Part shown: in pieces, positions 9,174 to 63,997 of the stretch | Position numbering within the stretch: the first letter of the stretch is position 1 | Layout: the number at the start of each line of letters is the position of its first letter | From: a virus | Length of the DNA: 64,000 bases | Reading direction: 5' to 3' (one strand) | UHGV virus genome: UHGV-0076293 | Notes under the pieces: model-generated | What the model was told of the DNA's origin: nothing | Database searches by the model: none | The model's input: only the letters and a program-made list of their open reading frames with translations | Program-made: the position numbers and the translations under genes

Positions 9174-9329
9174 ATGAGAAATGTTAATGCAATGCTTAAC
9201 CAGGCATTTGTTAACCAACAGCGTTTTCAGGAACGCTTAGCACAACTTAAAACACAACACAGACCACCACAACAAAGAGTGGTTAAGAGCAAGTTCGGCG
9301 AAATGGTTTTCGAAAGAAAATCTTTCTAA
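9174..9329 (+). CDS. small basic protein (51 aa), member a of a tandem trio
   Basis: not in the ORF track; AAGGA RBS; followed by a terminator hairpin; shares FxERL and FERKS-type motifs with the next two small ORFs. Confidence 0.45.
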   Translation: MRNVNAMLNQAFVNQQRFQERLAQLKTQHRPPQQRVVKSKFGEMVFERKSF

Positions 9330-9337
9330 TAACCGTT

Positions 9338-9361
9338 AGGGGTGTGACAGCACCCCTTTTT
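9338..9361 (+). terminator. intrinsic terminator
   Basis: AGGGGTG-TGACAG-CACCCCT hairpin followed by TTTT. Confidence 0.65.
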
Positions 9362-9479
9362 ACGCTTTAACTTTTCCAAAGAGAAGTTAAAGCAGTAAGG
9401 ACTGTTGGCGCAGTCCTTACTTGTCATCGCTATTACAGAAACGTGATAGCACAATTCTAATTTTTAGAGGCGATCAGAA

Positions 9480-9647
9480 ATGTTCGACAGTATTACACAA
9501 ATTTTTAACACTACCGTAAACAATCACGCTCAGCAAGCGAAGTTTAATGAACGATTAAGGGAAGTTCAACAATTAGGATTAAATAAAAGATTAAAATCTT
9601 CCAATAATCCTCGAGTACAGATCTTCACCGAAAGGAGAAGTAACTGA
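9480..9647 (+). CDS. small basic protein (55 aa), member b of a tandem trio
   Basis: not in the ORF track; AGAGG RBS; C-terminal QLGLNKRLKSSNN...QIFTERRS closely matches member c. Confidence 0.5.
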   Translation: MFDSITQIFNTTVNNHAQQAKFNERLREVQQLGLNKRLKSSNNPRVQIFTERRSN

Positions 9648-9656
9648 TAAAAACAA

Positions 9657-9684
9657 GGTGAGCTGTTGGAGCAGCTCACCTTTT
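9657..9684 (+). terminator. intrinsic terminator
   Basis: GGTGAGCTG-TTGGAG-CAGCTCACC hairpin followed by TTTT. Confidence 0.7.
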
Positions 9685-9743
9685 ACAACGCCATTACGTT
9701 TCCGTAATGGATTTCTTTAATCACCCTACAAAGAGGGCTTACC

Positions 9744-9917
9744 ATGAACAATGGTTACTACTTTACTGACAAAATGCTTGCAGAACAATATGCAGCAAAA
9801 ACCAATTTACAGCAACGTATCTACGAGTATAGTCAACTCGGTGCGAATAAACGATTAAAACCATCAACCAACCGTTTCACACAGATAATCACTGAAAAAA
9901 GGAGTGAACGCTACTAA
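9744..9917 (+). CDS. small basic protein (57 aa), member c of a tandem trio
   Basis: not in the ORF track; AGAGGG RBS; QLGANKRLKPSTN...QIITEKRS matches member b. Confidence 0.5.
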   Translation: MNNGYYFTDKMLAEQYAAKTNLQQRIYEYSQLGANKRLKPSTNRFTQIITEKRSERY

Positions 9918-10052
9918 CTAATAAAAGGGGGTGTGCTACCACCCCCTACTTAGTTCAGCAGTTGTCTTTCGTTCATAAATATTAGATGTCTTGTTTTTTT
10001 TTGCTTTTCGGGACGCATAAGGGGTCGTAGGGGGAGCCGAAGCTCCCCAGAC

Positions 10053-11615
10053 TCAAAAGAGTTCGTCACCCATACCGCCTGTAAAGACGTTAATCGACGA
10101 TGCAGTCACTGTTTCTTCTTTATCGCAATCCCAAGGCAGAATGCCAACTTCACGGAAAGGTATTACTGTATAATGGTAAGCTTCTTTAGTATCGATAATT
10201 GTACGGTGTTTACCACGTTGTACTTCTAAGTAACTATGCCCATTGACAACACGTTTGTTAAAATACATCTCACCGTCAGCTTCGTTATCCAAGCTGGAGC
10301 AGTTATCGTAAAGACCGCGACCTGGTAAGTTCTTACAGAAACTTGCTGGGTCTAACGCTTTTAATTTTTTGCCTTCCGGTGAGATTTGGTGTGGCGCTAA
10401 CAAGAAACCACGGTTACGTACTACCTGGATGTTTCGAGCGATACGATAAATTTCTTTAATGTCGCTACCGGCAATCCCGTTACCGTGACCTGCTTTACTG
10501 ATAGTCCCGAAATAGTCTCCGCGAATCCCAGCTACATGATAACCTCGACGCTTTAAGTCCAGTATTAAGTCGTTTAAGTAATGTATTTTAAAATCTGAGT
10601 TTGTGTGTTTCTGAAAGATGTACTCCCAACCGTTAGCCCGCATTTTACTACAGAGGTAGTCCGACATTTTTGTGTTGTGTAAAGCTTTCTCTTCGTCGGT
10701 AGCGTTTTCAGAAGCAACCATAACCGGTGCTTCACCTTCAAAATGACCGTAGAGCGCTTGGTACGCATACGCCAAGTTAACGTCCAGTTCGTTCTCTAAA
10801 CTTAAATCGAGAATAACCGGCTGCAAATCACCTTTAACGTTTTCCATTACTTTTTCAGGCGTATTGAATACCGGAATACTGATAGACAACAACAGACTAA
10901 AAAGCGATTTACAGTTAAAGGGCAATGCAGGCATTAGCCAAAGTTCTTCGGTAATCCCTTTGTTACAACCCAGCATCTGGTTAATGGCTTTCCATCCGGT
11001 ACGTAAACCATTACCCGCTGCTTTCTTACTGATTGAGTCGAACACATGTACGAACGGTGCACGGTTATCCGTAATAAGCTCACCAACTAGTGAGGGAATC
11101 TTATTATGAGAGCGTTCACTGAACGTAGAGAGACTATCTCTGAGGTCGTTGAGCGCCGTTTGTAAATCAACGCGCGTTTCGGTTCCGTTCAGTGCGCCTA
11201 ACGTACGACCTAATTTTTGTTTCAGTTGTACGCCTTGAATAGCTTGACGTAATTGGAAGTAGTATTGTGCTACTTGACGGTTAAGATGCTCGATGCGTGC
11301 TTCTGGTTCTTCTGGAATATCATCTTCCAGGAATTTGGTAATCGTATCGTATAGAGGACGTATTTGCGTAGTGGCCAGTTTCAAACGTTTCATGACGTTT
11401 GTGTGGTCGTAAGGCATACCGCCGTCTATGATGGATGTGATGATATCCTTGATTTCGACGAGGGCGGCACGTTCGTCACCTTCCTCTACGTAATCAGGAA
11501 GCTTAGCCTCTAACAGCACTTTTCTTATGACCTCGTGATCCTTCTCAGGGTCGGTCAGCAGACTTTCAGTGTATAGTGTGGCTAATGCGGTTATCAACAT
11601 CATTTTGTTATTCAT
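10053..11615 (-). CDS. hypothetical protein (520 aa)
   Basis: long minus-strand ORF; AAGGA RBS on the minus strand; start codon lies 13 nt from a divergent + strand gene. Confidence 0.75.
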   Translation of the reverse strand: MNNKMMLITALATLYTESLLTDPEKDHEVIRKVLLEAKLPDYVEEGDERAALVEIKDIITSIIDGGMPYDHTNVMKRLKLATTQIRPLYDTITKFLEDDIPEEPEARIEHLNRQVAQYYFQLRQAIQGVQLKQKLGRTLGALNGTETRVDLQTALNDLRDSLSTFSERSHNKIPSLVGELITDNRAPFVHVFDSISKKAAGNGLRTGWKAINQMLGCNKGITEELWLMPALPFNCKSLFSLLLSISIPVFNTPEKVMENVKGDLQPVILDLSLENELDVNLAYAYQALYGHFEGEAPVMVASENATDEEKALHNTKMSDYLCSKMRANGWEYIFQKHTNSDFKIHYLNDLILDLKRRGYHVAGIRGDYFGTISKAGHGNGIAGSDIKEIYRIARNIQVVRNRGFLLAPHQISPEGKKLKALDPASFCKNLPGRGLYDNCSSLDNEADGEMYFNKRVVNGHSYLEVQRGKHRTIIDTKEAYHYTVIPFREVGILPWDCDKEETVTASSINVFTGGMGDELF

Positions 11616-22555: not shown

Positions 22556-24739
22556 ATGCAGAGATTTAACATATTTCGTGAACAGAACATCGCGTTGGCG
22601 AAATCACTGATTATTAAATCAGAATCAATCGCACAACAGATGAATCTGGCAATAACCGAGAACGGCGGTTTCGTTTCCGATAACCGAAGTACGTGGCGAT
22701 ACTACCTGCATTTAGCAGGACAACGTCACGAATGGGATAAGCCCATTTACATAACGTCGCTCGACACGCAAGAGCAGATAGAATTAACGACAGCCAACCT
22801 GTCCCGTCATAAAAAGACCTCAAACGTATTTCGTTCGAACGGCGAGTACATTGAGGAGCTGATCAGAACGTATCCTGACTACGCGATTTATATCCGAGGT
22901 GTGTTTAATCCGGTGGATATAAACTACGCCATCCGTGTGGCTGATTGTTCTATTCTCTATTACGACAGTTCATTAGTGGAGTCGCAAGAGACGTCACTGA
23001 TGTCGAGATTGGAAGACAGAATAAGGGCAGCTCACGTTCGCTATATGTCAGAAGGGTGGAAAGTTCACAACGATGCGTTCGTGTTAGCATTCTACTGTAT
23101 TCTGTATCCGCAGCTACCCGGCATTATCGGCTATATCCGTTCTTCTTTACAGCATACCACGGAAACACACTCGTTTTACGTGACAGAGTTCTTAGCATCG
23201 CACCAAGAACTTCACGAGTTTATGCCGTATCTGACCCAGAAACAGAAATTCATTCTTTATCGGAACATTCGTTACTGGGAACGTAACTCAGGGAAAGAGG
23301 AGATTTTCGACTGGCAGATTGATGCTTTGCTGACAGGTTGGGGGATGCCTGCGGTTGGGTATAATGTTGCACAACAGATACACGAACCGAAGGATGATGA
23401 CGACTCCACGTTAACACCGTTACCGATTGGTTATCAGCAATCGCTTAACTATACGGAAAAGGATTCTGGTCGAGACCTTGACATTGTAACGACGACGGAC
23501 ATTATCCAGAAGGAAGTCGCGTTAGCGTACAATAACCCGGCGTACGAACCGGAGTATCAGGAAGACTTAGATACCCGTTTAAGTTTAACGCAATACCCTA
23601 ACCTGAAAACCAAACTCATTGAAGTTACAGCAGTCGACCCAGAAGCGATTGAGCGCTTCGAGTATCTGCATAACCTCTTTAACGAATGGGTACATCTCGT
23701 CGCGAAAGGGAAATACAACATTTACCACGAGATTCTTAACCCAACAAACGGGGATACCCTAAAGCTTAGCTCAAAAGAGTTACTGGCGCTGTTCTTGTAC
23801 GCGGCGTATAAAGGGTATTCTGACGTTGCGTTAGAAGAGATTCCTGTGTTCAACGTGTTCGGGGTGTTAATCAAACGCTGGGTTTCGTTCGATGAAATGG
23901 AACAACATTTAATTCCGAGTTGGGAAAACCGTTTCGATGCGTTGATTAACTATTATACCGATACACACACAGAAGTCGTCGGAACGATTCTTAGTGCTGA
24001 TGAACTTTACGACACGGTTAATGAAATCATTACCCAGAAACGTCGTCGTTGGCGTTATAGTCAAAACCGACGTAAGATTCCTGACCGTGCAGCGGGCTTG
24101 ATGCTGTTTAACTACCATTACCGTGATTATCGTTGCGATTTAAAACTGAACTATCGTAATTACGATGAGTTCTTTAAAACGTTTGGGTTAGATTATACGT
24201 TGGTTTCGGCGGAGACGTGGCAAGATATTGCTATTGACGCATTTAACACCGCAACTAACCTGGAAACCCGCGCAACGATTTCACAGTCTGAGATTCAGCG
24301 TGCGATGGTACGTCTGATGACGAAGTTGTCATCCTACACCGTACATTTTGCTGCACGAATGGGGTCAGATTCTTACGACGTTATGGACCCGCTCTGTCCT
24401 ATCTTAGGGGATATCCCTATGAGTGGGGAGGGGTCGGTTACCATTATTGAACCCCTCTTAGGCGTACAGCAAGTTACGCGTCACCAGTATATATCCACCG
24501 ACACTGTGTTACCGGCAGCGCCTGTTATTAAAGAACTGTCGATGCCGCAGCACATCAAACTCAGGATGAACATTTACATGGGCATCCGAGTGAAAGTAAC
24601 ACAGCAGGTTGTGGTGGATATTAACGAGCCGACTACCGGGGTTGTTAAAGTGAAATCTTCGCTTGACGATTGGACGTTAAACGAACAGGTGAAAATTAAC
24701 GATCTTGACGGCTTCACGCTTGACCAGCTACCTAAGTGA
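22556..24739 (+). CDS. hypothetical protein (about 727 aa)
   Basis: ORF track starts at a TTG at 22544; the first ATG is at 22556; start lies 12 nt from the divergent minus-strand gene start. Confidence 0.7.
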   Translation: MQRFNIFREQNIALAKSLIIKSESIAQQMNLAITENGGFVSDNRSTWRYYLHLAGQRHEWDKPIYITSLDTQEQIELTTANLSRHKKTSNVFRSNGEYIEELIRTYPDYAIYIRGVFNPVDINYAIRVADCSILYYDSSLVESQETSLMSRLEDRIRAAHVRYMSEGWKVHNDAFVLAFYCILYPQLPGIIGYIRSSLQHTTETHSFYVTEFLASHQELHEFMPYLTQKQKFILYRNIRYWERNSGKEEIFDWQIDALLTGWGMPAVGYNVAQQIHEPKDDDDSTLTPLPIGYQQSLNYTEKDSGRDLDIVTTTDIIQKEVALAYNNPAYEPEYQEDLDTRLSLTQYPNLKTKLIEVTAVDPEAIERFEYLHNLFNEWVHLVAKGKYNIYHEILNPTNGDTLKLSSKELLALFLYAAYKGYSDVALEEIPVFNVFGVLIKRWVSFDEMEQHLIPSWENRFDALINYYTDTHTEVVGTILSADELYDTVNEIITQKRRRWRYSQNRRKIPDRAAGLMLFNYHYRDYRCDLKLNYRNYDEFFKTFGLDYTLVSAETWQDIAIDAFNTATNLETRATISQSEIQRAMVRLMTKLSSYTVHFAARMGSDSYDVMDPLCPILGDIPMSGEGSVTIIEPLLGVQQVTRHQYISTDTVLPAAPVIKELSMPQHIKLRMNIYMGIRVKVTQQVVVDINEPTTGVVKVKSSLDDWTLNEQVKINDLDGFTLDQLPK

Positions 24740-24746
24740 GAAAACC

Positions 24747-25274
24747 ATGGCATATCGCGTCGACTTAACGAAAACTCCGAAACAAATTCTGGTAGATCGT
24801 ATTAACTACGTTTTCGGGGTATCCTATACCACTGACAACATCGATTTTAACGATAAAGGTGTGCAACCACTGACAAAAGATGAAGCCCGTCGTTACGGAC
24901 TGGAATCGAAAGTGGCTGCTGACTTTAAAAACGGTGTTGCAGGGAACCAGGAATTTATCTTAACCCGTGTTGACCTGGCAACGTTCTTAGCTGACGAACC
25001 GGTTACGGTACCGAAAGGCGAAGTAACCAGCAGCCAAGAACTGGCAGACTATATCGTTGCTCAGACCGGTATTGATTTGACTGAAGACGACATTATGATC
25101 GAGCCTATCAGTGAGGAACTCGATTCTTATGATGTTCGCTTAGTCCCGAATCACTTATCTTTTAAAGGAACGATTCCGGTCGTATTTACTGACCCCACAC
25201 CACGTACGTTGGCGTCTCTCGTGACGAAACTTGCGCTGGACGGGTTCCGCCCTGGAGAATTAATCAATGTCTAA
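24747..25274 (+). CDS. hypothetical protein (175 aa)
   Basis: first ATG of the ORF, 8 nt after the upstream stop. Confidence 0.65.
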   Translation: MAYRVDLTKTPKQILVDRINYVFGVSYTTDNIDFNDKGVQPLTKDEARRYGLESKVAADFKNGVAGNQEFILTRVDLATFLADEPVTVPKGEVTSSQELADYIVAQTGIDLTEDDIMIEPISEELDSYDVRLVPNHLSFKGTIPVVFTDPTPRTLASLVTKLALDGFRPGELINV

Positions 25275-45111: not shown

Positions 45112-45156
45112 CCTACCGCCCGATTCTATGGGCGGTAGGTGTTTTATTTTTTTTTG
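45112..45156 (+). terminator. intrinsic terminator
   Basis: CCTACCGCCC-GATTCTAT-GGGCGGTAGG followed by T9. Confidence 0.8.
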
Positions 45157-45171: not shown

Positions 45172-45735
45172 GTGGCCACATCTTACGTACCTGATTTGAG
45201 TCTGACCTCAGCAGAGCTAGTGGTCGCTTTAATCAATCATGATAACGGGTTACAGCTTACGCTAAACGAAATCCGTATTAGCGGAACCGTAACAAACCCA
45301 TCACCAACAACTTCGCGTCGTAACACCATCACCGAAATCAGTAAAATCAGAAAACCGGATGGTGCGTCTGTTGTGGTCTACTACGACAGACTTGACGCCG
45401 ATGAGGTATTAACGTCTGAACCTATTTTGATTTCGTTAGACGGTACCGAAGCGATTATCCGTGACGTTCTGAGTGTTGTAAATGAACACTGCGGTACGAA
45501 CTTACAGCCTGAAGACTTACGCGTTTCTGATATTACTTCAGGTAACGATCCTATTGCCGTTAACGTTGCCGACGATTCACCTGCGTGGATGAATGCGTTT
45601 ATGGTGACGTTATTTGATAAAACTGAGCGTGCGTTAGCGAACGAAGAAGATGAAATCTTCTGCATCGGTGACGATAGCGTTCTTACCTTTGAGGTTCCAG
45701 ATGACGACTCAGCTGAAGAAAACCCGACTACATGA
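45172..45735 (+). CDS. fibre-associated protein, paralog A1 of a four-member family
   Basis: GTG start after GGAGGG; shares PDLSLTS...NHD...YYDRLDA...CGTNLQ...CIGDDSVLTF with the gene at 51471; sits directly upstream of a tail fibre gene. Confidence 0.6.
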   Translation: MATSYVPDLSLTSAELVVALINHDNGLQLTLNEIRISGTVTNPSPTTSRRNTITEISKIRKPDGASVVVYYDRLDADEVLTSEPILISLDGTEAIIRDVLSVVNEHCGTNLQPEDLRVSDITSGNDPIAVNVADDSPAWMNAFMVTLFDKTERALANEEDEIFCIGDDSVLTFEVPDDDSAEENPTT

Positions 45736-45940
45736 ACTTGATGATTTTTACCGGTAATGGAGGACAAAGCAAACTTTTATCAAGACTTAGCAAACCAAAA
45801 TCATGAAAACGCGAAATTGAACATCGCTTTCACGTTAGAAGATGATGTATTAAAACCAGGGCAATAGTAACCCGCTTATAAAAAATTGGGGGGTAAACTA
45901 CTCTCCTGATCTTTTAGCTCCCGATAGAGAATTAAATATC

Positions 45941-48900
45941 ATGGCTAAAGCGGTAAAGAAAATTCGTTTACACGATTTACGTCCATACACCGGTGATATC
46001 GGTGAAGGCGTTTTACTTTTCTCCAAGGATGAGAAAGATTATAAGTTACCAGTCCGTGAGGTTATTGCAGATATTGACACCGTACGTAATGCGGTGGCTG
46101 ATGCACAAACAGCAGCAGCACAATCACAAGAAGCTGCAACTCAGGCTACGCAAGCAAAAGTTTTAGCAGAAGCAGCAAAACAACAAACTGACACAGTTGC
46201 GGCAACGGTTGCACAACAAGCGCAAACCGTAACCGAAAAAGCAACAGAAGTCAGTACAAAACACACCGAAGTGTTAGCCGCGAAAACGGCGGTAGACGCT
46301 CAGGCTGTGTCCATTAATGAGAAAGCACAAGCGGTAGCGACAAGTGAGGCAAACGTCACACAAGCAGAAACTACCGTTACGAAGAAAGCAGAAACTGTTG
46401 CCACACAAGCCGGGCGGGTCGAACAGTCACTTACGGCAGTTAACGAAGCTGTTGCGTCGGTAGAGTCGTCGAAAGCTGCCGTAGAAGCTAAAGCAACACA
46501 AGTTACTTCAGACAAAGAAACCGCAGAGAATGCGGCAACTCGTTCTGAGGCAGCCGCTAAGCGTGCGGAAGAAATCGTTGCTCAAGGTACTGTTGATGCA
46601 ACAACGACCAGTAAAGGTGTCGTTAAACTTAATAATACCTTAACCAGTGACTCTGTTACTGAAGCGGCTACACCGTCAACGGTTAAGCAGTTAAATGATG
46701 AATTGCAGTTAAAAGCAAACCGTCACAACCCAACTTTTACCGGTGTGGTAAAAGCACCGACTCCTGCTTCGGATTCTAACGACACGAGCGTCTCAACGAC
46801 TGCATGGGTACGGCAAGCGATTGCTGAATTAGTGGACTCTTCACCCGAGACGTTAGATACGTTATCAGAAATTGCAGCCGCGTTAGGAAACGATCCTAAC
46901 TTTGCGACAACGATAACGAACCAACTAGCGGGTAAACAGCCGTTAAGTCCGTTACTGACAGCGATTGCCGCAGTCACCACCGCTGCAAACAAACTCCCTT
47001 ACTTTACCGGTAGTAATCAGGTAGGGTTAGCGGATTTCACCTCGACTGCTCGCGAATTATTAGCGAAAGGGTCGACGGCCGATATCATCAGCTTCCTGGG
47101 GTTGAAAACCACCGTTGATAAAGCTGCGGGCGCTATGCAACGTAGTTCTAACGGTGCCGATATTCCCGATAAAGCCACCTTCGCGAAGAACATCGGGTTG
47201 TCAGCAGAGACGTACCTGAAGTTTAATGGGGAGATGCCAGTAGATGCAGACATCAACACCTTCGGCCCGGTTGAAGCGTTTATGGGCGTTTGGTCTAAAG
47301 CCACGTCTACGAACGCAACAGTTGCAAAGAATTTTCCAGAAGAAAACGCAGTTGGTTGTTTAGAAGTTTTCAAAGCGGGTAACTACAGCGGAAGTCAACG
47401 TTTTACTGTACGTAACGGTAACATCTATACACGTCATCTTACTGCTGCATGGAATGGGACAAACGGTCCTTGGTCAGAATGGCGTAATGTTGCTGGTTCC
47501 GCCAGAACGTTGAACGAACAAAATAATCTGAATGACTTGGGTGGTGAGGCCGCACTAGGTGTTTGGAGAAACAGTTCGAGTACATTAGCAACAACCGCGC
47601 TGAATTATCCTGAAGAAGGCTCTTTTGCCCAGGGCGTATTAGAAGTTCTCAAAGGTGGCAACTATAGTTACACACAACGCTACACTACCCGCAGAGGCAA
47701 TGTATACGTTCGTTGTCTACAAGCCACGTGGGACGCTTCAAACCCGCAATGGGAAGAATGGCGCTGTGTTGGTCATCAATCTGTCAGCACATATTTCGAA
47801 GGCGATCTCGACACGTTAACTTCGCCTAACCGTTATAGCATTACTGATAAAGCGACAAACGTTCCTTTAATCGACGGTACTAAAATTATCGGTATCTTGG
47901 ACGTCAGTCGTCGTTTTGATAACATTAGTGTCGAACAAAAATTCACCTCGTTTGGTTCTGGGAGCAAAACTACAGGGCGTATTTTCACACGTGTATTCTC
48001 CGGTCAATCAAACGGTAAATGGAGTGAGTGGCGAGAGGTTTTCACCTCGTATTCACTTCCGTTAGTTTTAGGTATCGGTGGGGTTGCAGCTAAGGTTGAC
48101 CCGTTAGACTGGCAAACCTACGACTTCGTTCCTGGACAGATGTTAACGACGCCGTTGAACACCATGAAAAACATTCCTGCAGGAATGGATTGGGGTACTA
48201 TTGACGGTAACTTAGTTAACATCCTTGTAGGGCCGTCTGACGACACCGGTACTGGTCGGAGTATGCTGGTTTGGCGTAGCACAGTGTCTGTTGCTAACTA
48301 TCGCTTCTTTGCGGTACGTATCGCTGGTGAGAAGGGTAGTCGTACGATTACGCCGCGTCAGATGCCTGTGTTGAACGCAGCGCACACCTGGGCAGAGAAA
48401 CAAACGTTCTCTAAAGGTTTAGCGGGTGAATTAACCGGTAATGCTTCTTCAGCAACGAAACTTCAAACAGCCCGTTTAATCGGCGGCGTAAGTTTCGACG
48501 GCACCAAGGACATTGCACTCCCTGGCGTTAACGCACAAGGTACGCAGAACACCACTGGGAATGCGGCTACCGCAACCAAATTACAAACGGCTAGAAATAT
48601 CAACGGTGTGAAATTCGATGGCTCTGGAGACATCAATATCAACACCTTAGTAGGTCGTGGACGTGTCACTGCTCTGGCTGGATCAAACAAAGGTACACCT
48701 GGTATCCAGATGTACGAGGTTTACAATAACGGTTATCCGACCGCGTATGGTAATTTACTGCATTTAGGTGGTGCTACTGCCGTAGGTGAAGGTGAACTAC
48801 TGATCGGTTGGTCTGGTACCAGTGGCGCACACGCACCTGTTTATATCCGTAGTCGTCGAGACACTACAGATGCGCCGTGGTCAGAATGGGCGCAAGTTTA

Positions 48901-50257
48901 TACTGCACGAGACAGCATTCCGGGTGTCAACACCACAGGTAATCAGGATACGACCGGAAACGCAGCTACCGCTACAAAACTTAAAACCACACGTAAAATA
49001 GGCGGGGTTAATTTTGACGGAACGGGTGATATTAACCTACCAGGTGTAAACCAGCAGGGCAACCAGAACACAACAGGTAACGCTGCGACAGCGACTAAAC
49101 TCCAGACTGCCCGAAATATTGGTGGTGTGGCTTTCGATGGTACTAAAGACATCAGTTTACCTGGGGTAAACCAAACAGGGAATCAGTCAACTACGGGGAA
49201 CGCTGCTACTGCAACGAAGTTGCAGACAGCAAGAAGTATCAACAACGTACCATTCGATGGTTCGAAAGATATTACTCTAACGCCAAGTAATATCGGTGCG
49301 GCTGCCTCCTCAATGACTTGGTTAAATACCGGGGATAATGGTGCAGCGCTTAGTACAGATTCTTTTATTACTTTGTTGCAAAATAACGGGGCTTTTAATT
49401 CCAGAACTTGGATAGCCCGATGCTCTTGGGCGTATGCTCAAAATGGCGTGATTCCAGATAGTGAAACAAAGTGCGGTACTATTCCACTTGCAGGCTCAGT
49501 TATTGAAGTTGTAAGTTTTGGGATGACCAACTACACCATTCGTATCACAACCCCTACGACGACATCGGTTAGCGGAGCAAAAACCAACTCTGAGTTTATT
49601 TATTGCTATAATGGTAAAGATTATTCTCCAGGTTGGCGACGGCAGTATAACACTGTTAATAAACCGTCTGCTAGTGACGTTGGCGCTCTACCAACTGGTG
49701 GCGGTACTGTCAGTGGCGATTTGACGGTTAATGGTAAACTGGTTACGAAAAATGCCGATTTTCGAATTGCTTACGGTAGTTACGGTTTCATTTTACGTAA
49801 CGATGGCAATAGCACCTATTTCTTAGTAACAGCATCTGGTCAAGCTGCAACGGGTTCCTGGAACAACTTACGACCGATGTACTTTAGCAATTCTACCGGT
49901 CAAGTAACCTTCGGACACAACATTACCGGTAACGGCAACGGTTCGTTTAACGACGTACAGATTCGTTCTGACCGTCGTAACAAACGTAATCTGGTGAAAC
50001 TGGATAATGCATTAGACCGTTTAGAACTCCTTACCGGGTATCTGTACGAAGTTCAACATCCTGACGATGGATGGAATACTTCGGTAGGCTTAATTGCCCA
50101 GGATGCATTAGTTGCGTTACCTGAATTGGTTACTGAAGACGATGACGCTATTTCTGGTGAAAAACGTTTACGTTTGAACTATAATGGTGTTATTGCGTTG
50201 TTGGTAGAGGGTATTAAAGACCTTCGTCGTGAGCTTAAGGAACTCAAGGGGAAATAA
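45941..50257 (+). CDS. long tail fibre, T5 pb1-like (1438 aa)
   Basis: Ala/Gln/Thr-rich coiled-coil N-terminal region; five tandem GNAATATKLQTARNIGGVxFDGTKDI repeats (phage tail-fibre repeat class); C-terminal peptidase S74-type intramolecular chaperone with SDRRNK Ser-Lys motif. Confidence 0.85.
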   Translation: MAKAVKKIRLHDLRPYTGDIGEGVLLFSKDEKDYKLPVREVIADIDTVRNAVADAQTAAAQSQEAATQATQAKVLAEAAKQQTDTVAATVAQQAQTVTEKATEVSTKHTEVLAAKTAVDAQAVSINEKAQAVATSEANVTQAETTVTKKAETVATQAGRVEQSLTAVNEAVASVESSKAAVEAKATQVTSDKETAENAATRSEAAAKRAEEIVAQGTVDATTTSKGVVKLNNTLTSDSVTEAATPSTVKQLNDELQLKANRHNPTFTGVVKAPTPASDSNDTSVSTTAWVRQAIAELVDSSPETLDTLSEIAAALGNDPNFATTITNQLAGKQPLSPLLTAIAAVTTAANKLPYFTGSNQVGLADFTSTARELLAKGSTADIISFLGLKTTVDKAAGAMQRSSNGADIPDKATFAKNIGLSAETYLKFNGEMPVDADINTFGPVEAFMGVWSKATSTNATVAKNFPEENAVGCLEVFKAGNYSGSQRFTVRNGNIYTRHLTAAWNGTNGPWSEWRNVAGSARTLNEQNNLNDLGGEAALGVWRNSSSTLATTALNYPEEGSFAQGVLEVLKGGNYSYTQRYTTRRGNVYVRCLQATWDASNPQWEEWRCVGHQSVSTYFEGDLDTLTSPNRYSITDKATNVPLIDGTKIIGILDVSRRFDNISVEQKFTSFGSGSKTTGRIFTRVFSGQSNGKWSEWREVFTSYSLPLVLGIGGVAAKVDPLDWQTYDFVPGQMLTTPLNTMKNIPAGMDWGTIDGNLVNILVGPSDDTGTGRSMLVWRSTVSVANYRFFAVRIAGEKGSRTITPRQMPVLNAAHTWAEKQTFSKGLAGELTGNASSATKLQTARLIGGVSFDGTKDIALPGVNAQGTQNTTGNAATATKLQTARNINGVKFDGSGDININTLVGRGRVTALAGSNKGTPGIQMYEVYNNGYPTAYGNLLHLGGATAVGEGELLIGWSGTSGAHAPVYIRSRRDTTDAPWSEWAQVYTARDSIPGVNTTGNQDTTGNAATATKLKTTRKIGGVNFDGTGDINLPGVNQQGNQNTTGNAATATKLQTARNIGGVAFDGTKDISLPGVNQTGNQSTTGNAATATKLQTARSINNVPFDGSKDITLTPSNIGAAASSMTWLNTGDNGAALSTDSFITLLQNNGAFNSRTWIARCSWAYAQNGVIPDSETKCGTIPLAGSVIEVVSFGMTNYTIRITTPTTTSVSGAKTNSEFIYCYNGKDYSPGWRRQYNTVNKPSASDVGALPTGGGTVSGDLTVNGKLVTKNADFRIAYGSYGFILRNDGNSTYFLVTASGQAATGSWNNLRPMYFSNSTGQVTFGHNITGNGNGSFNDVQIRSDRRNKRNLVKLDNALDRLELLTGYLYEVQHPDDGWNTSVGLIAQDALVALPELVTEDDDAISGEKRLRLNYNGVIALLVEGIKDLRRELKELKGK
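48425..49295 (+). repeat. five tandem ~37-aa tail-fibre repeats inside the fibre gene
   Basis: repeated TGNAATATKLQTAR-x-IGGV-x-FDG-x-DI-x-LPGVNQ-x-GNQ units, recoded with synonymous codons between copies. Confidence 0.8.
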
Positions 50258-50260
50258 AGG

Positions 50261-50803
50261 ATGGCAGTTGTTGAAGTTCCAGGTTATATCGGTTCTTCTG
50301 CAAAGGAAGTTACTGGCGAAGAGATGATGTCTGAAGCGATGACCGAACTCGGCGTTGTCGTACCAGGGATGATGTCTGAAATGGCAGGTCTGTCAATGGG
50401 TTGCTATGTAACGTTTGAGGAGTGGACTACCGTTGAAGATGGCCTTGATGTTCGATGGATCGGTGCGTCTACTTCCGAGTGGACAGACGGCTACGGCAAA
50501 CCGGTCGTTAAAGGAAAAATATCCGGGGCGAAGATGTTTGGTTTGAATGTCGAAGCGGAGCTGATCGGAATGCACTATAAAAAGCATCCGCGATTCCCTT
50601 GGTCAGTCGAACTAAAATGTCGCTGCGAAAAAGGTAGCAATTTCAGTTATACGTTAGACGGTGTAAGCGGTTCTGTATCGAGTGATGGTACCGGTACAAC
50701 CGGAATGCAAATTCGTACATTCAAATTTAACAATTTCAGTGCAGCATTTAAGGAAAAGATAGAGCAAGTTGGTGTCAAGATGCCAACATCACGTAAATAT
50801 TAA
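50261..50803 (+). CDS. hypothetical protein, paralog X1
   Basis: N-terminal GSSAKEVTGEEMMSEA...MMSEMAGLSMGC motif shared with the gene at 50865. Confidence 0.65.
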   Translation: MAVVEVPGYIGSSAKEVTGEEMMSEAMTELGVVVPGMMSEMAGLSMGCYVTFEEWTTVEDGLDVRWIGASTSEWTDGYGKPVVKGKISGAKMFGLNVEAELIGMHYKKHPRFPWSVELKCRCEKGSNFSYTLDGVSGSVSSDGTGTTGMQIRTFKFNNFSAAFKEKIEQVGVKMPTSRKY

Positions 50804-50815
50804 AAGAGTAGCGTA

Positions 50816-50825
50816 GGGGGGGGGG
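50816..50825. repeat. poly-G tract (G10) inside a GC hairpin
   Basis: homopolymer GGGGGGGGGG pairing with a downstream C6 run. Confidence 0.9.
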
Positions 50826-50853
50826 AGGTCACCCCCCTACGCGAATCTTAACA

Positions 50854-50862
50854 GGGGGGGGG
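50854..50862. repeat. poly-G tract (G9) forming the ribosome-binding region of the gene at 50865
   Basis: GGGGGGGGG ends 2 nt before the ATG. Confidence 0.9.
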
Positions 50863-50864
50863 TA

Positions 50865-51368
50865 ATGGCGGTTAACTCGGGTTGGGTCGGTTCTTCGGCT
50901 AAGAGCGAAACGGGCGAACAGTGGATGAGCGCTGCGGGTGCCAAATTGGGATTGGGTAAACCTTTTATGATGAGTCAAATGGTGGGACGATCTATGGGCT
51001 GTAAAATTTCAACTGCTGCATATAGTGATTCTTTAGGTAAGAAATGGGGTGCTGTGGGATCAAGTTGGCCATTAACTCAGAAAAATCAGGGAACCATTCA
51101 AAACGCGGGTAACTGCGGGGTGGGAACTTTAGTAGGTATAGAGTTACAATTAACGACGGTAGTTGCCAACGCAACGCCTACTCTAGCGGTCTATTTACAA
51201 GGCGGCAGGGCCTCTAACATCACTGCAAATCTAGGCGGTAACACTTGTGCGCTGACCTATCAGCAGGTTATTAATGGCCAACATTATTACTGGACCAATA
51301 ACATTAGTGCCGCGTTCCAAAACGTGATGAAATCGACCGGTACACTAAGAGATTTCAAAATTAGTTAA
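50865..51368 (+). CDS. hypothetical protein, paralog X2
   Basis: GSSAKSETGEQWMSAA...MMSQMVGRSMGC; flanked by poly-G tracts. Confidence 0.65.
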   Translation: MAVNSGWVGSSAKSETGEQWMSAAGAKLGLGKPFMMSQMVGRSMGCKISTAAYSDSLGKKWGAVGSSWPLTQKNQGTIQNAGNCGVGTLVGIELQLTTVVANATPTLAVYLQGGRASNITANLGGNTCALTYQQVINGQHYYWTNNISAAFQNVMKSTGTLRDFKIS

Positions 51369-51405
51369 TTATTTTTCAAACGAATGTGTTTGAAAACGTA
51401 ATCGA

Positions 51406-51415
51406 GGGGGGGGGG
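51406..51415. repeat. poly-G tract (G10)
   Basis: homopolymer about 55 nt upstream of the gene at 51471. Confidence 0.9.
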
Positions 51416-51470
51416 TGAAGTGTTTTTAGCCAACATTTTATGTCTCCCCAACCGTAGGAGGTAAATATAC

Positions 51471-51983
51471 GTGGAACAATTCACGCCAGATTTGTCGTTA
51501 ACTTCACTTAACATGGTTATTTCACTGGTTAACCATGACCTCCAACTTGACTTGCAAGAGAATGAGGTCGAAGTCAGTGACGTAAAGACCAGTGACGAAA
51601 TGGAACGTGACACCACTGCTGTTGTAAAGATAAAACGTTCTGGTAACAGAACGTTACAAATCTACTACAACCGTTTAACTGCAGAGCGGTGGTTAAACCG
51701 ACAACCTGTACTTGTAAAAGTAACAGGCGAAGGGTTTAATGCGCACGATCTAATCGAATCCATCAACACCGTTTGTGGTGCTAACTTACAAACCGACGAT
51801 TTAACCGACCAGTCGTTCACGGTGGGTAAAGACGCGGTAATATTTAGCATCGCTCCGAGTTCCCTCGGCTACAAAGGTCAGTTCTCCGTGGTGGTTTTCG
51901 GTCCAGATGAAACACCGTGTGGTATCGGTGACGATTCTGTCGTGCTAACGTTTGACAATAAAATCTTAACCTTTGGAGAGTAA
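51471..51983 (+). CDS. fibre-associated protein, paralog A2
   Basis: GTG start after AGGAGG; paralog of the gene at 45172; directly upstream of the second fibre gene. Confidence 0.6.
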   Translation: MEQFTPDLSLTSLNMVISLVNHDLQLDLQENEVEVSDVKTSDEMERDTTAVVKIKRSGNRTLQIYYNRLTAERWLNRQPVLVKVTGEGFNAHDLIESINTVCGANLQTDDLTDQSFTVGKDAVIFSIAPSSLGYKGQFSVVVFGPDETPCGIGDDSVVLTFDNKILTFGE

Positions 51984-51986
51984 TAG

Positions 51987-54119
51987 ATGAGTCAGCCAAT
52001 TGGAAAGAAGCGTATTCATGAGCTGGAAACATTTGAAGGTGAATTAGCAGGAGTCGTTCTGCTGATGTCCAAAGACGACAAAGAATATAAACTTGACGCA
52101 TCTCGTTTACAAAACGATAAGCTGTATCTAGCTTGCGGTACACCTTTTCCTAAACTAGTATTCCAAAACGATAAAACACATTACAATATTAATCCGTACA
52201 GTGACTACGACACTTATGAAGTTTCTGCAAATAAAGGTCGGGTATCTAAAGTTACTCGTGCCACATTTAGCGTGATGGCTGGGTCTTTATCGGTTGGCGA
52301 GAAAATACAACTTACAGTTACGCGCAATGGCGTACCATTTCAATTTGAAGTTACCGTATCGGGACCGCGTATCACTACTCCCACTTGGACACTTCCAGTT
52401 AATGGCGGTAAATTGAGCGTAACGCCAACCTTTGAAGTAACTGACTATCAAGCCTATCCATATACCAACACCGGTAATCAACAGACCGCTGCCAGTTGGG
52501 AAATTTCCACTAGTGAAGATTTCTCAACTACAGTTTTCCAATCACTGAACGACACCGTCAACAAAACAACCATCAGTATCCCAGAAGGTAAGTTAGAACC
52601 AGGTCAAACTTACTACGCACGTGTTCGCTTCCATAACGCAGTAACCGAAAGTGATTGGTCCGTTGTTCAATTCTCAGTCGGCGAAGCATTTATTCAGCGT
52701 CCTGCACTGATCGAACCCACCGTAGACATGGTGTTAAGCGCATCGAATATTACACTTAAAACTGATGTTTTTAAATGGGTCGGTGACGAACCTGCGGAGA
52801 CCCACGTATCGACTGACTGGCAGGTTACTTACGGTAGCAACGATTTTGACGAAATGAATAATCTCGTTAACCAATTAGAAGATGCGATTAACCTGACGTC
52901 GCTTAAATTACCGTCTGATCGGGTTTACGTTAATAACAGTTATCGTGCACGCGTGCGTTTTCGTGGTGAGAGAAGCGTCAGTGATTGGTCTGAACCTTTA
53001 ACGTTCCGTGTAAGTCGCGGGAACGTACCAACAAGTGAATTCCAGTCAATTTCTGCTTCTGGATTTACAGGTAATTCAATCGGTGCTGAGTTGGCATGTA
53101 CTGACGACGGTTTGCTGTTTGCTGCTACTGGCGTTGCACAGAAAGCGAAATTCTTACATATCTTTAAGAAAGACTTCCCGTCTTACAACAAAGTTGCCTC
53201 TTTAACAGCTGCTACTGAGGTTGACGCAGACAGAGATGGTCGCTGTCCGGTCAGTATGTCAGCCGACGGTAAGATTATTGTTGTCGGTGTTAGCGCATCT
53301 AAAGCTAACGAAGACCACGGCGAAGTTATCGTTTACCGTAACCCAGATAACGCTGAGTGGAGTACAATCAACGGAATAACTTTAGCGGGATTACCCACAG
53401 AAGGGTTCCATGGCCTTGCAGTAAAACTGTCAAAAGACGGCAATCGTTTGATTGTGGGTAACGGTACGAAAGTGCTGTCTATGTATTCCAATACCGATCA
53501 ATTTGCTACACGTACGGCTGTGTCGCCGACACTAAGTGCCGAAGACGCCACTTGTGGTGGTATTGGTAGCATTGCAATGTCTGAAGACGGTAACGGTTTA
53601 GTGCTTGGCGAAACTAACGGAACGAAATTCCACGTACTGGCTTGGGAATCGGATAGTTGGGTGTCTAAGGCATCTATTACACCAAAAGACTTGACTGAGA
53701 AAGCAACGATTAAAGTCGCTGCTTCTTCTGACTTGTCTACGATTCTTGTTTCTGTAGTTGAGACACACAAATACTACGTTTACAAGAAAACCGGTGATAG
53801 TTGGTCTCTGTTCCAAACCTTGGATTATACCGAACTGGATTACTCCATTACTTCTACCCGTTACCCGACGGGAGACATTAATGTTGCGCCTTCCGGAAGC
53901 TGGTTAATTTTCGGTATGGTGGGTTCGTTGGGTTCTATTTTCGAATTTCGTAATAGTACCTACCAACGACAAAATAGCATTTACGGCAGTAGTCTTAGCG
54001 ATCCTGAGAATTACCACTTCTATACGTCACAAGCCATCAGTGCACAAAACGATTTGTTCGTCGGTGCTGATGTTAAAGAAAGTGCTTCGTACTTCCCACA
54101 AATCAAAGTTTACATGTAA
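51987..54119 (+). CDS. second tail fibre / receptor-binding protein (710 aa)
   Basis: N-terminus KKRIHELETFEGELAGVVLLMSKDDKEYKL is homologous to the N-terminus of the 1438-aa fibre; two FN3-like units (YYARVRF...SDWS, YRARVRF...SDWS); C-terminal repeated S-x-DG-x-x-(I/L)-(V/I)-x-G beta-propeller-like blades. Confidence 0.7.
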   Translation: MSQPIGKKRIHELETFEGELAGVVLLMSKDDKEYKLDASRLQNDKLYLACGTPFPKLVFQNDKTHYNINPYSDYDTYEVSANKGRVSKVTRATFSVMAGSLSVGEKIQLTVTRNGVPFQFEVTVSGPRITTPTWTLPVNGGKLSVTPTFEVTDYQAYPYTNTGNQQTAASWEISTSEDFSTTVFQSLNDTVNKTTISIPEGKLEPGQTYYARVRFHNAVTESDWSVVQFSVGEAFIQRPALIEPTVDMVLSASNITLKTDVFKWVGDEPAETHVSTDWQVTYGSNDFDEMNNLVNQLEDAINLTSLKLPSDRVYVNNSYRARVRFRGERSVSDWSEPLTFRVSRGNVPTSEFQSISASGFTGNSIGAELACTDDGLLFAATGVAQKAKFLHIFKKDFPSYNKVASLTAATEVDADRDGRCPVSMSADGKIIVVGVSASKANEDHGEVIVYRNPDNAEWSTINGITLAGLPTEGFHGLAVKLSKDGNRLIVGNGTKVLSMYSNTDQFATRTAVSPTLSAEDATCGGIGSIAMSEDGNGLVLGETNGTKFHVLAWESDSWVSKASITPKDLTEKATIKVAASSDLSTILVSVVETHKYYVYKKTGDSWSLFQTLDYTELDYSITSTRYPTGDINVAPSGSWLIFGMVGSLGSIFEFRNSTYQRQNSIYGSSLSDPENYHFYTSQAISAQNDLFVGADVKESASYFPQIKVYM

Positions 54120-54128
54120 GGAAACGCG

Positions 54129-54689
54129 ATGAAATATGCTTATTTAAAAGACGGTAATGTGATCGACTGGAATGTTACCGAAGACATGATTGCTTTGCGT
54201 GGCCACACTGTAGATATTTATACGCCTGTAGTAGAATCTGCTAAACCGGTTGTTAACCCTGATTGTTATATCGTGTTCGAAACAACACCAAAACTGGTAA
54301 AAGGCAAGCTGGTTCAACAGTGGGTGACTGAAGCGCTGCCTAAAGAAACGGTAGTACGTAACCAGAAGGCACGTTTAGCGGAAATTCGTTATGCGAAAGA
54401 AACTGCCGGGATTACGTTTAAAGACCAAACTATTCCTACGACACGTGATGTACGTTATCAGTTAATTCAGTCTAAACACGTTGATTCTACGCAACCTATT
54501 AACTGGAAGCTAGGCGATACGTGGCTAAGTCTTACTCAGGAAGACATTGATGCGCTGCTGGTTGCAATCGCAACTTATGTTGAGAAATGCTACGCGGCAG
54601 AACGCACAGTCTCCGAGAAAATCACTAAGGTGAAAGCACCTGAAAAACTGGATGTAGAAACCTTATTTAACGACGCTTTCGCAGCGTAA
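54129..54689 (+). CDS. possible tail-fibre assembly/chaperone-like protein
   Basis: position immediately after a fibre gene; ARLAEIRYAKETAGITFKD...WKLGDTWLSLTQEDIDALL resembles tail-fibre assembly proteins; weak. Confidence 0.4.
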   Translation: MKYAYLKDGNVIDWNVTEDMIALRGHTVDIYTPVVESAKPVVNPDCYIVFETTPKLVKGKLVQQWVTEALPKETVVRNQKARLAEIRYAKETAGITFKDQTIPTTRDVRYQLIQSKHVDSTQPINWKLGDTWLSLTQEDIDALLVAIATYVEKCYAAERTVSEKITKVKAPEKLDVETLFNDAFAA

Positions 54690-54692
54690 CAC

Positions 54693-54736
54693 GGTAGCAG
54701 GGGCTTAGCCCCTGCTACCTTTTTCTTTATTTTTTC
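54693..54736 (+). terminator. intrinsic terminator
   Basis: GGTAGCAGGGGC-TTA-GCCCCTGCTACC followed by a T-rich stretch. Confidence 0.85.
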
Positions 54737-62694: not shown

Positions 62695-63543
62695 ATGTCT
62701 CTTACGTCAAAACAGAAACTGCTAAAACTCATCAACACTGAAAACAATATTAGTCCGCCGTTGACCTTCAGTGATGTTGATATCGGAGAGCCTACTGGTA
62801 CTGGGGTTGATACCCAGGTGGTTCTGACCTCTAAACTCAAAGGCGATGAGTCTACTACTTTAACAGTGACTTACCACCGTCGTAACTTACCTGACTACCT
62901 AACCGGTGAGTTGGTATTCGGTAACGACAGTGTGGTAACCGCATCAGATTTGCTTAATGCGATTAACGCAAAATACAACCTAAATATTTTACCCTCGGAT
63001 ATCGTTGACGCAAAAGTTGAAGGCGAAACCCATCAGCTTACCGCTAACGAGAAATCTTACGAGTGGTGCGGTGTAGTAACACTTACGCTGCGTGATCCTA
63101 TTGACCTGACTGAACTGTTACCAGTTACTCAATTAGAGAATCTGGTAGAGTATCCGTCCACTAAGAAAGGTAACGCTGCGGTTTATTCTCACCCGATCGA
63201 TTTCACCGCAGAAAAAGATTACCTTGACCCGATTACTATCAACGACACCGTAGACTTGGTCGAGTTAGCCGCTAAACTGGATGGCGTCGTTGACGAGAAA
63301 TGGGTAAGTGTGCCTAAGAACGCGACTAACAACCTGTACGGTGCGAAGGTTATTTACGATGGCCCAACCGCAGGTTACGAAGGCGCAAATACGAAGTTCA
63401 CTCGTGTGTTGGTGCTGACGCTCAGCCCGCTGTGTTCTAACCTGACAGGTAATCTGTTAATCCACTTTAACGGTACCGATCGTCCGAAGTCGAAGATTGA
63501 ATTAGCACAGACTAATCCGGTCTTACCGGGATTCTTAGATTAA
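62695..63543 (+). CDS. hypothetical protein, paralog B1 of the fibre-associated family
   Basis: N-terminal MSLTSKQKLLKLIN...TVTYHRRNL...SDLLNAINAKYNLNI aligns with the genes at 45172 and 51471. Confidence 0.65.
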   Translation: MSLTSKQKLLKLINTENNISPPLTFSDVDIGEPTGTGVDTQVVLTSKLKGDESTTLTVTYHRRNLPDYLTGELVFGNDSVVTASDLLNAINAKYNLNILPSDIVDAKVEGETHQLTANEKSYEWCGVVTLTLRDPIDLTELLPVTQLENLVEYPSTKKGNAAVYSHPIDFTAEKDYLDPITINDTVDLVELAAKLDGVVDEKWVSVPKNATNNLYGAKVIYDGPTAGYEGANTKFTRVLVLTLSPLCSNLTGNLLIHFNGTDRPKSKIELAQTNPVLPGFLD

Positions 63544-63556
63544 GAGGATTACAGTA

Positions 63557-63997
63557 ATGACCAATCAAGAAACTATCTTCGACCTTATTAAAAAGGCTAA
63601 CCCAGACGCTGAGTTCGACACCACCAAAGTCACACTGGGTGACCCGGTCGTAACCACCGGTACGTACAATACCGAAATCACAGTTGCGTCAATTAAGAAT
63701 CTCGGTTATACTAACGAACAAACGTTCCAGTATAACCGGATCGACGCAGGTTTGTATTTCCTGAACGTATTACCGAAACTGTTGGTGGAATCGGCAACAA
63801 CGACCGCTGACTTACTGCCTGTCATTAACGAGCAGTACAGCCTAACCCTTACAGAAGACGATGTATGGGTAGAGCAGGTTGGTGAGTTACCGTTAGACGG
63901 AAGCGCAATCGAACACGGTATTTTCTTCCGTCCTGAGTGTCTGACCTGGGTTGGCGGTTTTACAGTGCGAGTTGCGCGTAAACCGGCTGGGCAGTAG
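63557..63997 (+). CDS. hypothetical protein, paralog B2 of the fibre-associated family
   Basis: TFQYNRIDA...ADLLPVINEQYSLTL matches the same conserved core. Confidence 0.65.
   Translation: MTNQETIFDLIKKANPDAEFDTTKVTLGDPVVTTGTYNTEITVASIKNLGYTNEQTFQYNRIDAGLYFLNVLPKLLVESATTTADLLPVINEQYSLTLTEDDVWVEQVGELPLDGSAIEHGIFFRPECLTWVGGFTVRVARKPAGQ

Follow-up and report, generated by a model that had tools for sequence, protein, structure and literature searches.

How are receptor-binding proteins (RBPs) with unrelated distal parts attached to the virion of a jumbo phage, and by what route are they exchanged? The question is raised by a block of seven genes at positions 45172-54689 of a 64,000-nt stretch of virus genome UHGV-0076293 (hereafter, the window). 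An earlier interpretation made from the letters alone, here called the sequence-only reading, had arranged this block as an adaptor (A1), a fibre (fibre 1), two further genes (X1 and X2), a second adaptor (A2), a second fibre, and a possible assembly protein, and had seen in it a modular receptor-binding locus built of two adaptor-plus-fibre cassettes that share an N-terminal anchor. All seven open reading frames (ORFs) were recovered where that reading had placed them; they lie on the + strand, as do the other features mapped within the block and at its borders. Our analysis gives good support to the view that the block serves an SPN3US-like chimallivirus as an accessory and variable module for host recognition. 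The explanation that we favor as a whole, with somewhat more confidence than doubt, combines such an RBP module and its common anchor with a fibre tip that carries separate adhesins and with A proteins that act as docking connectors.

The modularity of the locus is most apparent from the anchor. The first ~36-43 residues of fibre 1 and of the second RBP (RBP 2, the "fibre 2" of the sequence-only reading) are homologous (16 of 36 positions identical, E = 3e-7), and nothing else aligns beyond this N-terminus, just as had been claimed. When all window ORFs of at least 60 amino acids (aa) were searched with phmmer, each of the two N-termini retrieved only the other one (E ~1e-6). A hidden Markov model (HMM) of the anchor matched residues 1-43 of fibre 1 (45941-46069; E = 2.6e-20) and residues 1-43 of RBP 2 (E = 5e-19), both of which are themselves among its seed sequences. 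Outside the window, the fibre 1 anchor is 56% identical to the N-terminus of SPN3US gp123 (tblastn, E = 3e-6), and the tblastn matches came only from SPN3US-like and Asesino-like phages, apart from two weak ones in Felix O1-like phages (E 0.5-0.7) that we took as noise. In SPN3US and Asesino, an A homolog (gp122 and gp139, respectively) is directly followed by a gene for a ~155-aa virion protein (gp123 and gp140), whose N-terminus is the anchor motif MATVVKKKRLHELDSYDGDKSSAVALISVDEKEYKL, and then by a gene for a ~1000-aa tail protein.

Close relatives of the window carry two to four anchor-headed proteins per locus, and the Klebsiella phages Eowyn and KpHz_2 carry seven anchor-headed RBPs each; in the SPN3US-like and Eowyn-like phages examined, the anchor heads every accessory RBP. 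Two of the RBPs found in relatives, of 273 and 206 aa, match the C-termini of unrelated, far longer fibre families from residue 47-48 onward. Because distal parts of such different origin begin at the same place, the anchor is well supported as a discrete, portable module of ~45 residues with a sharp graft junction at about residue 46. A profile search of the PDB found no solved structure related to the anchor, and neither Pfam nor PHROG holds a family of its own for it.

The sequence-only reading had taken A1 (45172-45735; 187 aa) and A2 (51471-51983; 170 aa) for paralogs, and a full-length BLASTP alignment confirms this (E = 3e-30; 32% identity over 170 aa). Both belong to Pfam family PF25613 (DUF7941), with scores of 68.5 bits for A1 and 51.4 bits for A2 against a cutoff of 27, and A1 also matches phrog_2935. 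A1, a homolog of SPN3US gp122, consists of an N-terminal globular domain and a short C-terminal tail. The two proteins span positions 3-154 of the 276 positions of the DUF7941 profile and end after a tail of ~25-35 aa, without the long, disordered linker and the globular domain at the C-terminus that the full-length DUF7941 architecture has. In the alignment, they show the motifs PD(L/V)SLxSxxLVxxLINHDN and YYDRL, which are common to the DUF7941 N-domain. A search of the PDB with the single A1 sequence gave no match, and only a profile of 36 A homologs reached phiKZ gp127 (9xqd_0, E = 0.0048). The N-terminal domain of the same gp127 chain was the sole significant PDB match of a Foldseek search with an AlphaFold2 (AF2) model of A1 (E = 1.7e-5, template modeling scores of 0.44/0.52). 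A1 and A2 are thus DUF7941 proteins, and their predicted fold is that of the N-domain of phiKZ gp127 (residues 1-150).

According to the phiKZ structural study, each gp139 spoke of the outer peripheral baseplate terminates in one gp127, a single copy for every star lobe (PMC13250141). A preprint on phage Goslar describes DUF7941 as specific to chimalliviruses, with some members bearing carbohydrate-binding or hydrolase domains; it reports that purified Goslar gp22 makes filaments for which head-to-tail assembly is predicted, and it proposes that DUF7941 units chain from, or anchor at, the peripheral baseplate (10.64898/2026.04.21.720040). The N-terminal globular domain is common to A1/A2 and to phiKZ gp126 and gp127, Goslar gp22 and gp23, and SPN3US gp122 and family B, a set of full-length paralogs; the architecture of Goslar gp23, an N-domain with a short tail, is that of A1/A2. 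The A1/A2 subfamily differs from these relatives in being of low abundance and tail-dependent in SPN3US and in being encoded beside anchor-bearing RBPs. An exhaustive HMMER survey returned 235 clusters of DUF7941 proteins, in which the ~145-aa domain stands alone or is joined to Ig, lectin, BNR, SPRY, or propeller domains; it is the long members that carry Ig, lectin, BNR, and propeller domains.

Further family members were seen nearby and in a relative. The window itself encodes a 189-aa short member beside structural genes (24705-25274), and at 62695-63543 and from 63557 (63557-63997, with the gene running on) it holds the start of an array of ~280-aa full-length paralogs, the equivalent of SPN3US family B (gp138-154), a family assigned to the head by proteomics. 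In a ~225-kb relative (IMGVR_UViG_3300029126_000001; loci L019/L022, 6217-8151), a 644-aa ORF ends in the A2 domain and begins with ~470 residues that resemble, on inspection of the sequence, an (alpha/alpha)-barrel glycosidase; an anchor-bearing RBP follows.

The genes for short A proteins and for anchors occur together. Wherever the sequence downstream of a short A gene was read in SPN3US-like loci, the gene directly precedes an anchor-coding sequence, intact or remnant; two A2 genes stand at a locus end. Most short A genes of Eowyn and KpHz_2 likewise precede anchors, the spacing often being 0-12 nt, and the A:anchor gene ratios that we observed were 1:1, 2:2-4, and 5:7. Gene order, co-inheritance (see below), and homology point to A proteins as outer-baseplate docking connectors for anchor-bearing RBPs, a role on which we judge the case to be about evenly balanced. 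A1 and A2 would then be minimal DUF7941 units that serve as low-copy connectors on the outer peripheral baseplate and offer docking sites to RBPs; the ~45-residue anchor would attach each RBP to the virion, and distal parts would be exchanged behind it. A narrower version, which we put forward only tentatively, would make gp122-type DUF7941 proteins dedicated sockets into which exchangeable RBPs plug at the gp127 position on the spoke ends, with socket and plug swapped together. The anchor was also considered as a mimic of the DUF7941 linker docking on the N-domain; the motif noticed by eye, L-x-x-L-x-x-Y/F … G-x-h-h-Y/F-S, failed controls.

In Orbitrap data of 2023 for SPN3US, gp122 gave 7, 7, and 8 peptide-spectrum matches in wild-type virions and 0, 0, and 0 in tailless particles (PMC10052503, Table S2). 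The corresponding counts for gp123 were 16, 16, and 23 in the wild type versus 0 in tailless particles, and those for gp124 were 530 versus 20; the SPN3US authors classed both gp123 and gp124 as tail proteins (PMC10052503, Table S2). With caution, we take gp122 to be a low-copy, tail-dependent virion component. Since gp122 occurs only in tailed particles, the A fold is that of gp127, and A2 is co-inherited with its RBP, the idea that A1 and A2 are virion adaptor components is plausible.

The same data can be read in another way, namely, that A1 and A2 are nonstructural or transient assembly chaperones that fold or trimerize the anchor of the neighboring RBP, with the anchor itself binding a conserved baseplate protein directly. 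In keeping with this, gp122 in SPN3US virions does not rise above the limit of detection and is called non-virion by those who studied it, the gene order is tight and seemingly translationally coupled, as for partner-specific factors, and A2 covaries with its anchor. We nevertheless consider this explanation unlikely because the A fold is the same as that of a domain forming part of the phiKZ baseplate, because gp122 peptides appeared in all three wild-type replicates and in no tailless particles, and because the fusion of the A domain to enzyme and lectin domains better fits a structural module. Known fibre chaperones are, in addition, usually encoded downstream of their clients, which also counts against a chaperone role for the A proteins.

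It also appears improbable to us that A1 and A2 belong to a DUF7941 filament or decoration system, either a baseplate "fibre cloud" or a head-associated one, that is independent of RBPs, so that their adjacency reflects nothing but late-gene synteny. Such a system would account for the window DUF7941 genes that stand away from RBPs (those at 24705-25274, at 62695-63543, and from 63557 onward), for the head association of SPN3US family B, and for A genes and anchors not being matched one to one. It would likewise account for Goslar gp23, an accepted DUF7941 member of the same minimal architecture, for which the consulted part of the preprint gives ~2,100 copies and no RBP linkage (10.64898/2026.04.21.720040). 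However, the gp122-like subfamily is confined to RBP clusters and lies directly upstream of anchor-coding sequence in the SPN3US-like loci examined, and the pairing holds across genera whose A proteins are only ~30% identical. The copies of A rise together with the number of RBPs (1, 2, and 5 copies), recombination units take in A2 together with its RBP, and gp122 is of low, tail-dependent abundance, unlike family B.

Returning to the proposal that A proteins dock anchor-bearing RBPs, several observations weigh against it. The anchor bears no detectable resemblance to the DUF7941 linker that docks on the N-domain: An hhalign comparison of the anchor with A gave a probability of 0.3%, and the anchor HMM gave 66 real DUF7941 linkers scores that were not above those of shuffled or reversed versions. 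The numbers of A genes and anchors depart from equality, at 2:4 in L007 and at 5:7 in both Eowyn and KpHz_2. Confidence in the AF2 model of A1 is low (predicted local distance difference test, pLDDT, 55.8), and this model was used only for the single comparison with gp127. Goslar has DUF7941 proteins, and no anchor motif was detectable on gp25, gp26, and gp29, three candidate fibres within its first 50 kb. For SPN3US, the gp122 counts are low, the protein was missed in the 2017 wild-type data, and it was classed as "Non-virion" despite a count pattern like that of gp123 (PMC10052503, Table S2). Family B of the same phage is head-associated, being equally abundant in tailless particles (PMC10052503, Table S2). 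Because of this last finding, the DUF7941 family is not uniformly baseplate-bound in SPN3US, which is in tension with the universal peripheral-baseplate location proposed in the Goslar preprint.

The history of the first cassette is recorded in the gap of 205 bp that separates A1 from fibre 1. In four close relatives (L006, L007/L008, L012, and L013), the gene order is A1, a gp123-like anchor protein, a gp124-like tail protein, and fibre 1, and none of these genomes has an A gene belonging to fibre 1 itself. The window retains remnants of both missing genes. At 45701-45757, an 18-codon sequence, MTTQLKKTRLHELDDFYR, ending in a stop codon, can be aligned to the beginning of the L006 gene of 153 aa and overlaps the 3′ end of A1, as the intact gene does in relatives. 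At 45760-45867 follow the last 35 codons and the stop of the gene for the gp124-like ~1000-aa tail protein, …NIAFTLEDDVLKPGQ; this stretch aligns with the 3′ end of the gp124-like gene of L006, and its translation resembles the C-terminus of SPN3US gp124, …LDITFTIPDDPLETN, up to the stop. A decayed terminator lies after it (45888-45906). The gap is thus well supported as a deletion scar in which ~3.4 kb was lost, and the same junction is present in relative L010. Given the remnants of both genes and the intact order in four relatives, the adjacency of A1 and fibre 1 is secondary, and A1 with fibre 1 is not an original cassette.

Taken as a tandem duplication of a cassette with later divergence of the distal domains, the sequence-only reading would explain why A1 and A2 and the two anchors are paralogous and why the present gene order resembles a repeat. 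It is now largely refuted for cassette 1 and, overall, has very little left to recommend it, since gp123/gp124-like genes separate A1 from fibre 1 in relatives and have left their remains in the window, the distal parts were imported from other fibre families and are unrelated to each other rather than diverged copies, and the single-cassette relatives SPN3US and Asesino pair A with a gp123-type protein, not with a fibre.

A1 outlived the loss of its original partners, the gp123- and gp124-like proteins. The ratio of nonsynonymous to synonymous substitution rates (dN/dS) is 0.09-0.20 for A1, a range that holds among genomes without gp123/gp124, and 0.06-0.22 for A2. Because A1 is intact and under selection among deletion carriers, its role is presumably not limited to gp123/gp124, and, its original clients being deleted, it now probably serves fibre 1 or another anchor-bearing RBP. 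The A1 allele of the window is nearer to those of genomes that keep the gp123/gp124-like genes (synonymous divergence, dS, 0.26-0.37) than to those of other deletion carriers (dS 0.73-1.0), a mismatch that suggests later recombination.

The second cassette fares better: A2 with RBP 2 behaves as a unit. Across relatives, the gene behind A2 encodes either a 710-aa protein accompanied by a DUF4376 protein or a 206-aa protein. When the window was compared with L018, identity was 95% for X2, 77% for A2, and 44% for the anchor. Because the identity of A2 follows that of the downstream anchor rather than that of the flanking genes, A2 and its RBP are inherited together. In another relative, L023 (IMGVR_UViG_3300045988_095954, 9300-10110), A2 is intact, an anchor remnant (…HELPSLSEDITI…) and a terminator are what is left of the next RBP gene, and most of the gene after it (dn283) is also lost; this is a second, independent deletion, and both it and the one marked by the window scar spare the A gene.

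RBP 2 (51987-54119; 710 aa) does not appear to be a fibre, contrary to the name that it had received. An AF2 model (pLDDT 67.7) predicts three Ig/FN3-like beta-sandwiches at aa ~60-342 and a beta-propeller at aa ~367-662, Foldseek matches of the model were FN3/Ig arrays and seven-bladed propellers, and Pfam recognizes an Ig_Rha78A_N domain. The predicted propeller end recalls the baseplate fibres of the phiKZ gp131 type (SPN3US gp168-170), whose C-domain is a seven-bladed propeller. The N-terminus of RBP 2 is the 45-aa anchor, whereas phiKZ gp131 has a gp131-like N-domain and a helix bundle, as described in the phiKZ study (PMC13250141). A relationship between RBP 2 and gp131 was considered and rejected: No PDB chain, gp131 included, was matched in sequence at E ≤ 1, and gp131 was outside the top 50 Foldseek matches.

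The last ORF (54129-54689; 186 aa), the possible assembly protein of the sequence-only reading, matches PF14301 (DUF4376; E = 2e-12, 47.7 bits against a cutoff of 25) as well as phrog_10508 and phrog_2837, and no relative of it was found in the PDB. The DUF4376 protein accompanies RBP 2 in L011 and is absent where the RBP is of the 206-aa type; in L007, the gene after the 273-aa RBP encodes another, distinct DUF4376 protein. This distribution points to an RBP-specific accessory, which may be an assembly factor or chaperone or else a distal partner or subunit. RBP 2 would then present its beta-sandwich domains and beta-propeller and need, or carry, the DUF4376 protein.

Fibre 1 (45941-50257; 1438 aa) is a long tail fibre. 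Pfam detects Phage_fiber_2, Gp34_trimer, and Peptidase_S74 domains in it, many tail-fibre PHROGs match it, and its C-terminal part matches chains of Mu S, T4 gp34, and S16 gp37. Residues 1277-1436 (49769-50248) correspond to the S16 gp37 tip with its intramolecular chaperone (PDB 6F45_A, E = 6e-14). The Peptidase_S74 domain occupies aa 1343-1397 (37.4 bits against a cutoff of 22), and the motif SDRRNK, with Ser1343 and Lys1348, stands at its start. The i/i+5 spacing of these two residues is presumably that of the Ser/Lys dyad of the K1F endosialidase. Ser1343 and Lys1348 therefore form a predicted autocleavage dyad, and the S74 chaperone may cut itself off at Ser1343 after trimerization of the fibre.

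Several features of fibre 1 were noted besides. At the protein level, a …WSEW… motif recurs (aa 511, 694, and 980), the motif GNAATATKLxTAR is present five times in the stretch of aa 838-1091, and tandem repeats were not detectable in the DNA of the gene. The Ala/Gln/Thr-rich stretch at aa ~45-215 is probably a coiled coil.

X1 (50261-50803) and X2 (50865-51368) are paralogs, as had been proposed (BLASTP, E = 3e-14, 30% identity). They are not, though, a pair apart from the fibres: The Gp38_N domain (PF21721) was found in X1 (E = 4e-11, 43 bits against a cutoff of 25) and in X2 (E = 1e-20, 73.6 bits against the same cutoff), X1 matches the tail fiber adhesins of phrog_1121, and the N-terminal 61 aa of X2 match S16 gp38 (PDB 6F45_D, E = 3e-4). 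A Pfam scan found PF05268, the polyglycine-rich receptor-binding domain of gp38, in neither protein. In relatives, the X1 slot is hypervariable; it is either empty or filled by a canonical PF05268 GP38 of 176-263 aa, such as in L006 and L012, and the X2 slot is nearly always filled. The first ~1100 aa of fibre 1 are 74-96% identical across relatives, and the distal ~300 aa vary together with the type of adhesin. Homology thus identifies X1 and X2 as short-form, gp38-type tip adhesins that belong to fibre 1, and sequence comparison gives good support to reading the three genes as a fibre tip of the T2/S16 type that bears one or two such adhesins. A gp38-type adhesin, either X1 or X2, would cap the fibre tip after the proposed self-cleavage and contact the receptor, and two adhesins could provide two specificities on one shaft.

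The likeness to the long tail fibre of T2, T6, and S16 (gp37 with gp38; PDB 6F45) extends to the gp37-type tip with its S74 chaperone, the gp38 N-terminal attachment domain, and the order of fibre gene, then adhesin gene. The differences are that X1 and X2 lack the polyglycine-rich domain and are of the short phrog_1121 type, as in Shiga toxin (Stx) phages, that two adhesin genes are present for one fibre, and that the proximal end of fibre 1 is the jumbo-phage anchor, not a gp36-binding domain. The first ~150 nt of X2 (50865-51017) are 85-89% identical to gp38/tail fibre adhesin genes of the Stx-converting phages P13374, phi191, and 75/02 Stx and of phage CMS-2020a. Because of this identity, the X2 tip-attachment module seems to have been recently exchanged between the jumbo phage and unrelated E. 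coli/Shigella phages.

The whole block is probably one transcription unit bounded by terminators. The two best terminator-like hairpins of the region flank it: the left one (45112-45139; 11-bp stem with eight GC pairs and a T-run), which closes the upstream unit, and the right one (54693-54719; 12-bp stem with nine GC pairs and a T-run). A scan for sigma-70 promoters was set aside, as it gave 24 sites versus 18.6 ± 4.4 in shuffled sequences and is irrelevant to a phage with its own RNA polymerases.

The DNA of the window is ~73% identical to that of SPN3US (Seoulvirus) and of phiEaH2/Asesino (Erskinevirus) in conserved structural genes only, and the best phage-database relatives of A1 are 42-48% identical to it. 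Closer relatives (83-96% identity for A1, 68-100% for RBP 2) are found on contigs of 220-227 kb that derive from metagenomes or from projects in which Salmonella, Shigella, or E. coli was sequenced. The source is, therefore, an SPN3US/Erskinevirus-like jumbo phage, and it belongs to a clade of phiKZ-related enterobacterial phages of ~225 kb that is under-described. Many assemblies that bear the label Salmonella enterica, Shigella flexneri, or E. coli contain near-complete ~225-kb contigs of this clade, some clusters of the clade contain 139-186 member sequences, and an August 2025 phage collection held no record close to it at the DNA level. This jumbo phage lineage is common and yet under-described, and isolates possibly carry it along.

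Each of the domains discussed here falls into a family that has been described, and multi-RBP systems that are modular and use adaptors are well known. The branched systems of phi92, CBA120 (TSP1-4), G7C (gp63.1/gp66), PhiK64-1, and RaK2/phiKp24 use shared N-terminal anchors and adaptors; like the locus studied here, they have several RBPs per virion, a conserved N-terminal module, recombining distal domains, and small proteins that connect enzymes without an anchor, the counterpart here being gp123 with gp124. The sequences of their anchors show no detectable relation to the anchor described here, Pfam finds no T4 gp10-like or other known anchor domain in it, and the putative adaptor is, unlike theirs, the chimallivirus-specific DUF7941 domain. 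In the literature searched, we found no description of the conserved anchor of SPN3US-like and Eowyn-like phages or of its regular association and co-inheritance with a minimal DUF7941 subfamily, and the consulted parts of the Goslar and phiKZ papers make no mention that we found of a link between short DUF7941 genes and anchor-bearing RBPs.

The 2026 structures of phiKZ and Goslar do not fully resolve the outer baseplate and its fibres, and for the role of the virion-abundant DUF7941 proteins this locus offers a testable proposal. Should the docking role prove wrong, the locus would still clearly exemplify how modular RBPs can be, with a jumbo phage that carries a fibre tip of the T2 type and two adhesins for it. 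If it is right, DUF7941 proteins would have a concrete role in host-range evolution, through a chimallivirus-specific way of docking RBPs that is unrelated to T4 gp10-like or T7-like anchors. This would explain how SPN3US-like and Eowyn-like phages gain and lose specificities, and it would provide a cut-and-paste point for retargeting these jumbo phages, whose hosts include Salmonella, E. coli, Shigella, Erwinia, and Klebsiella.

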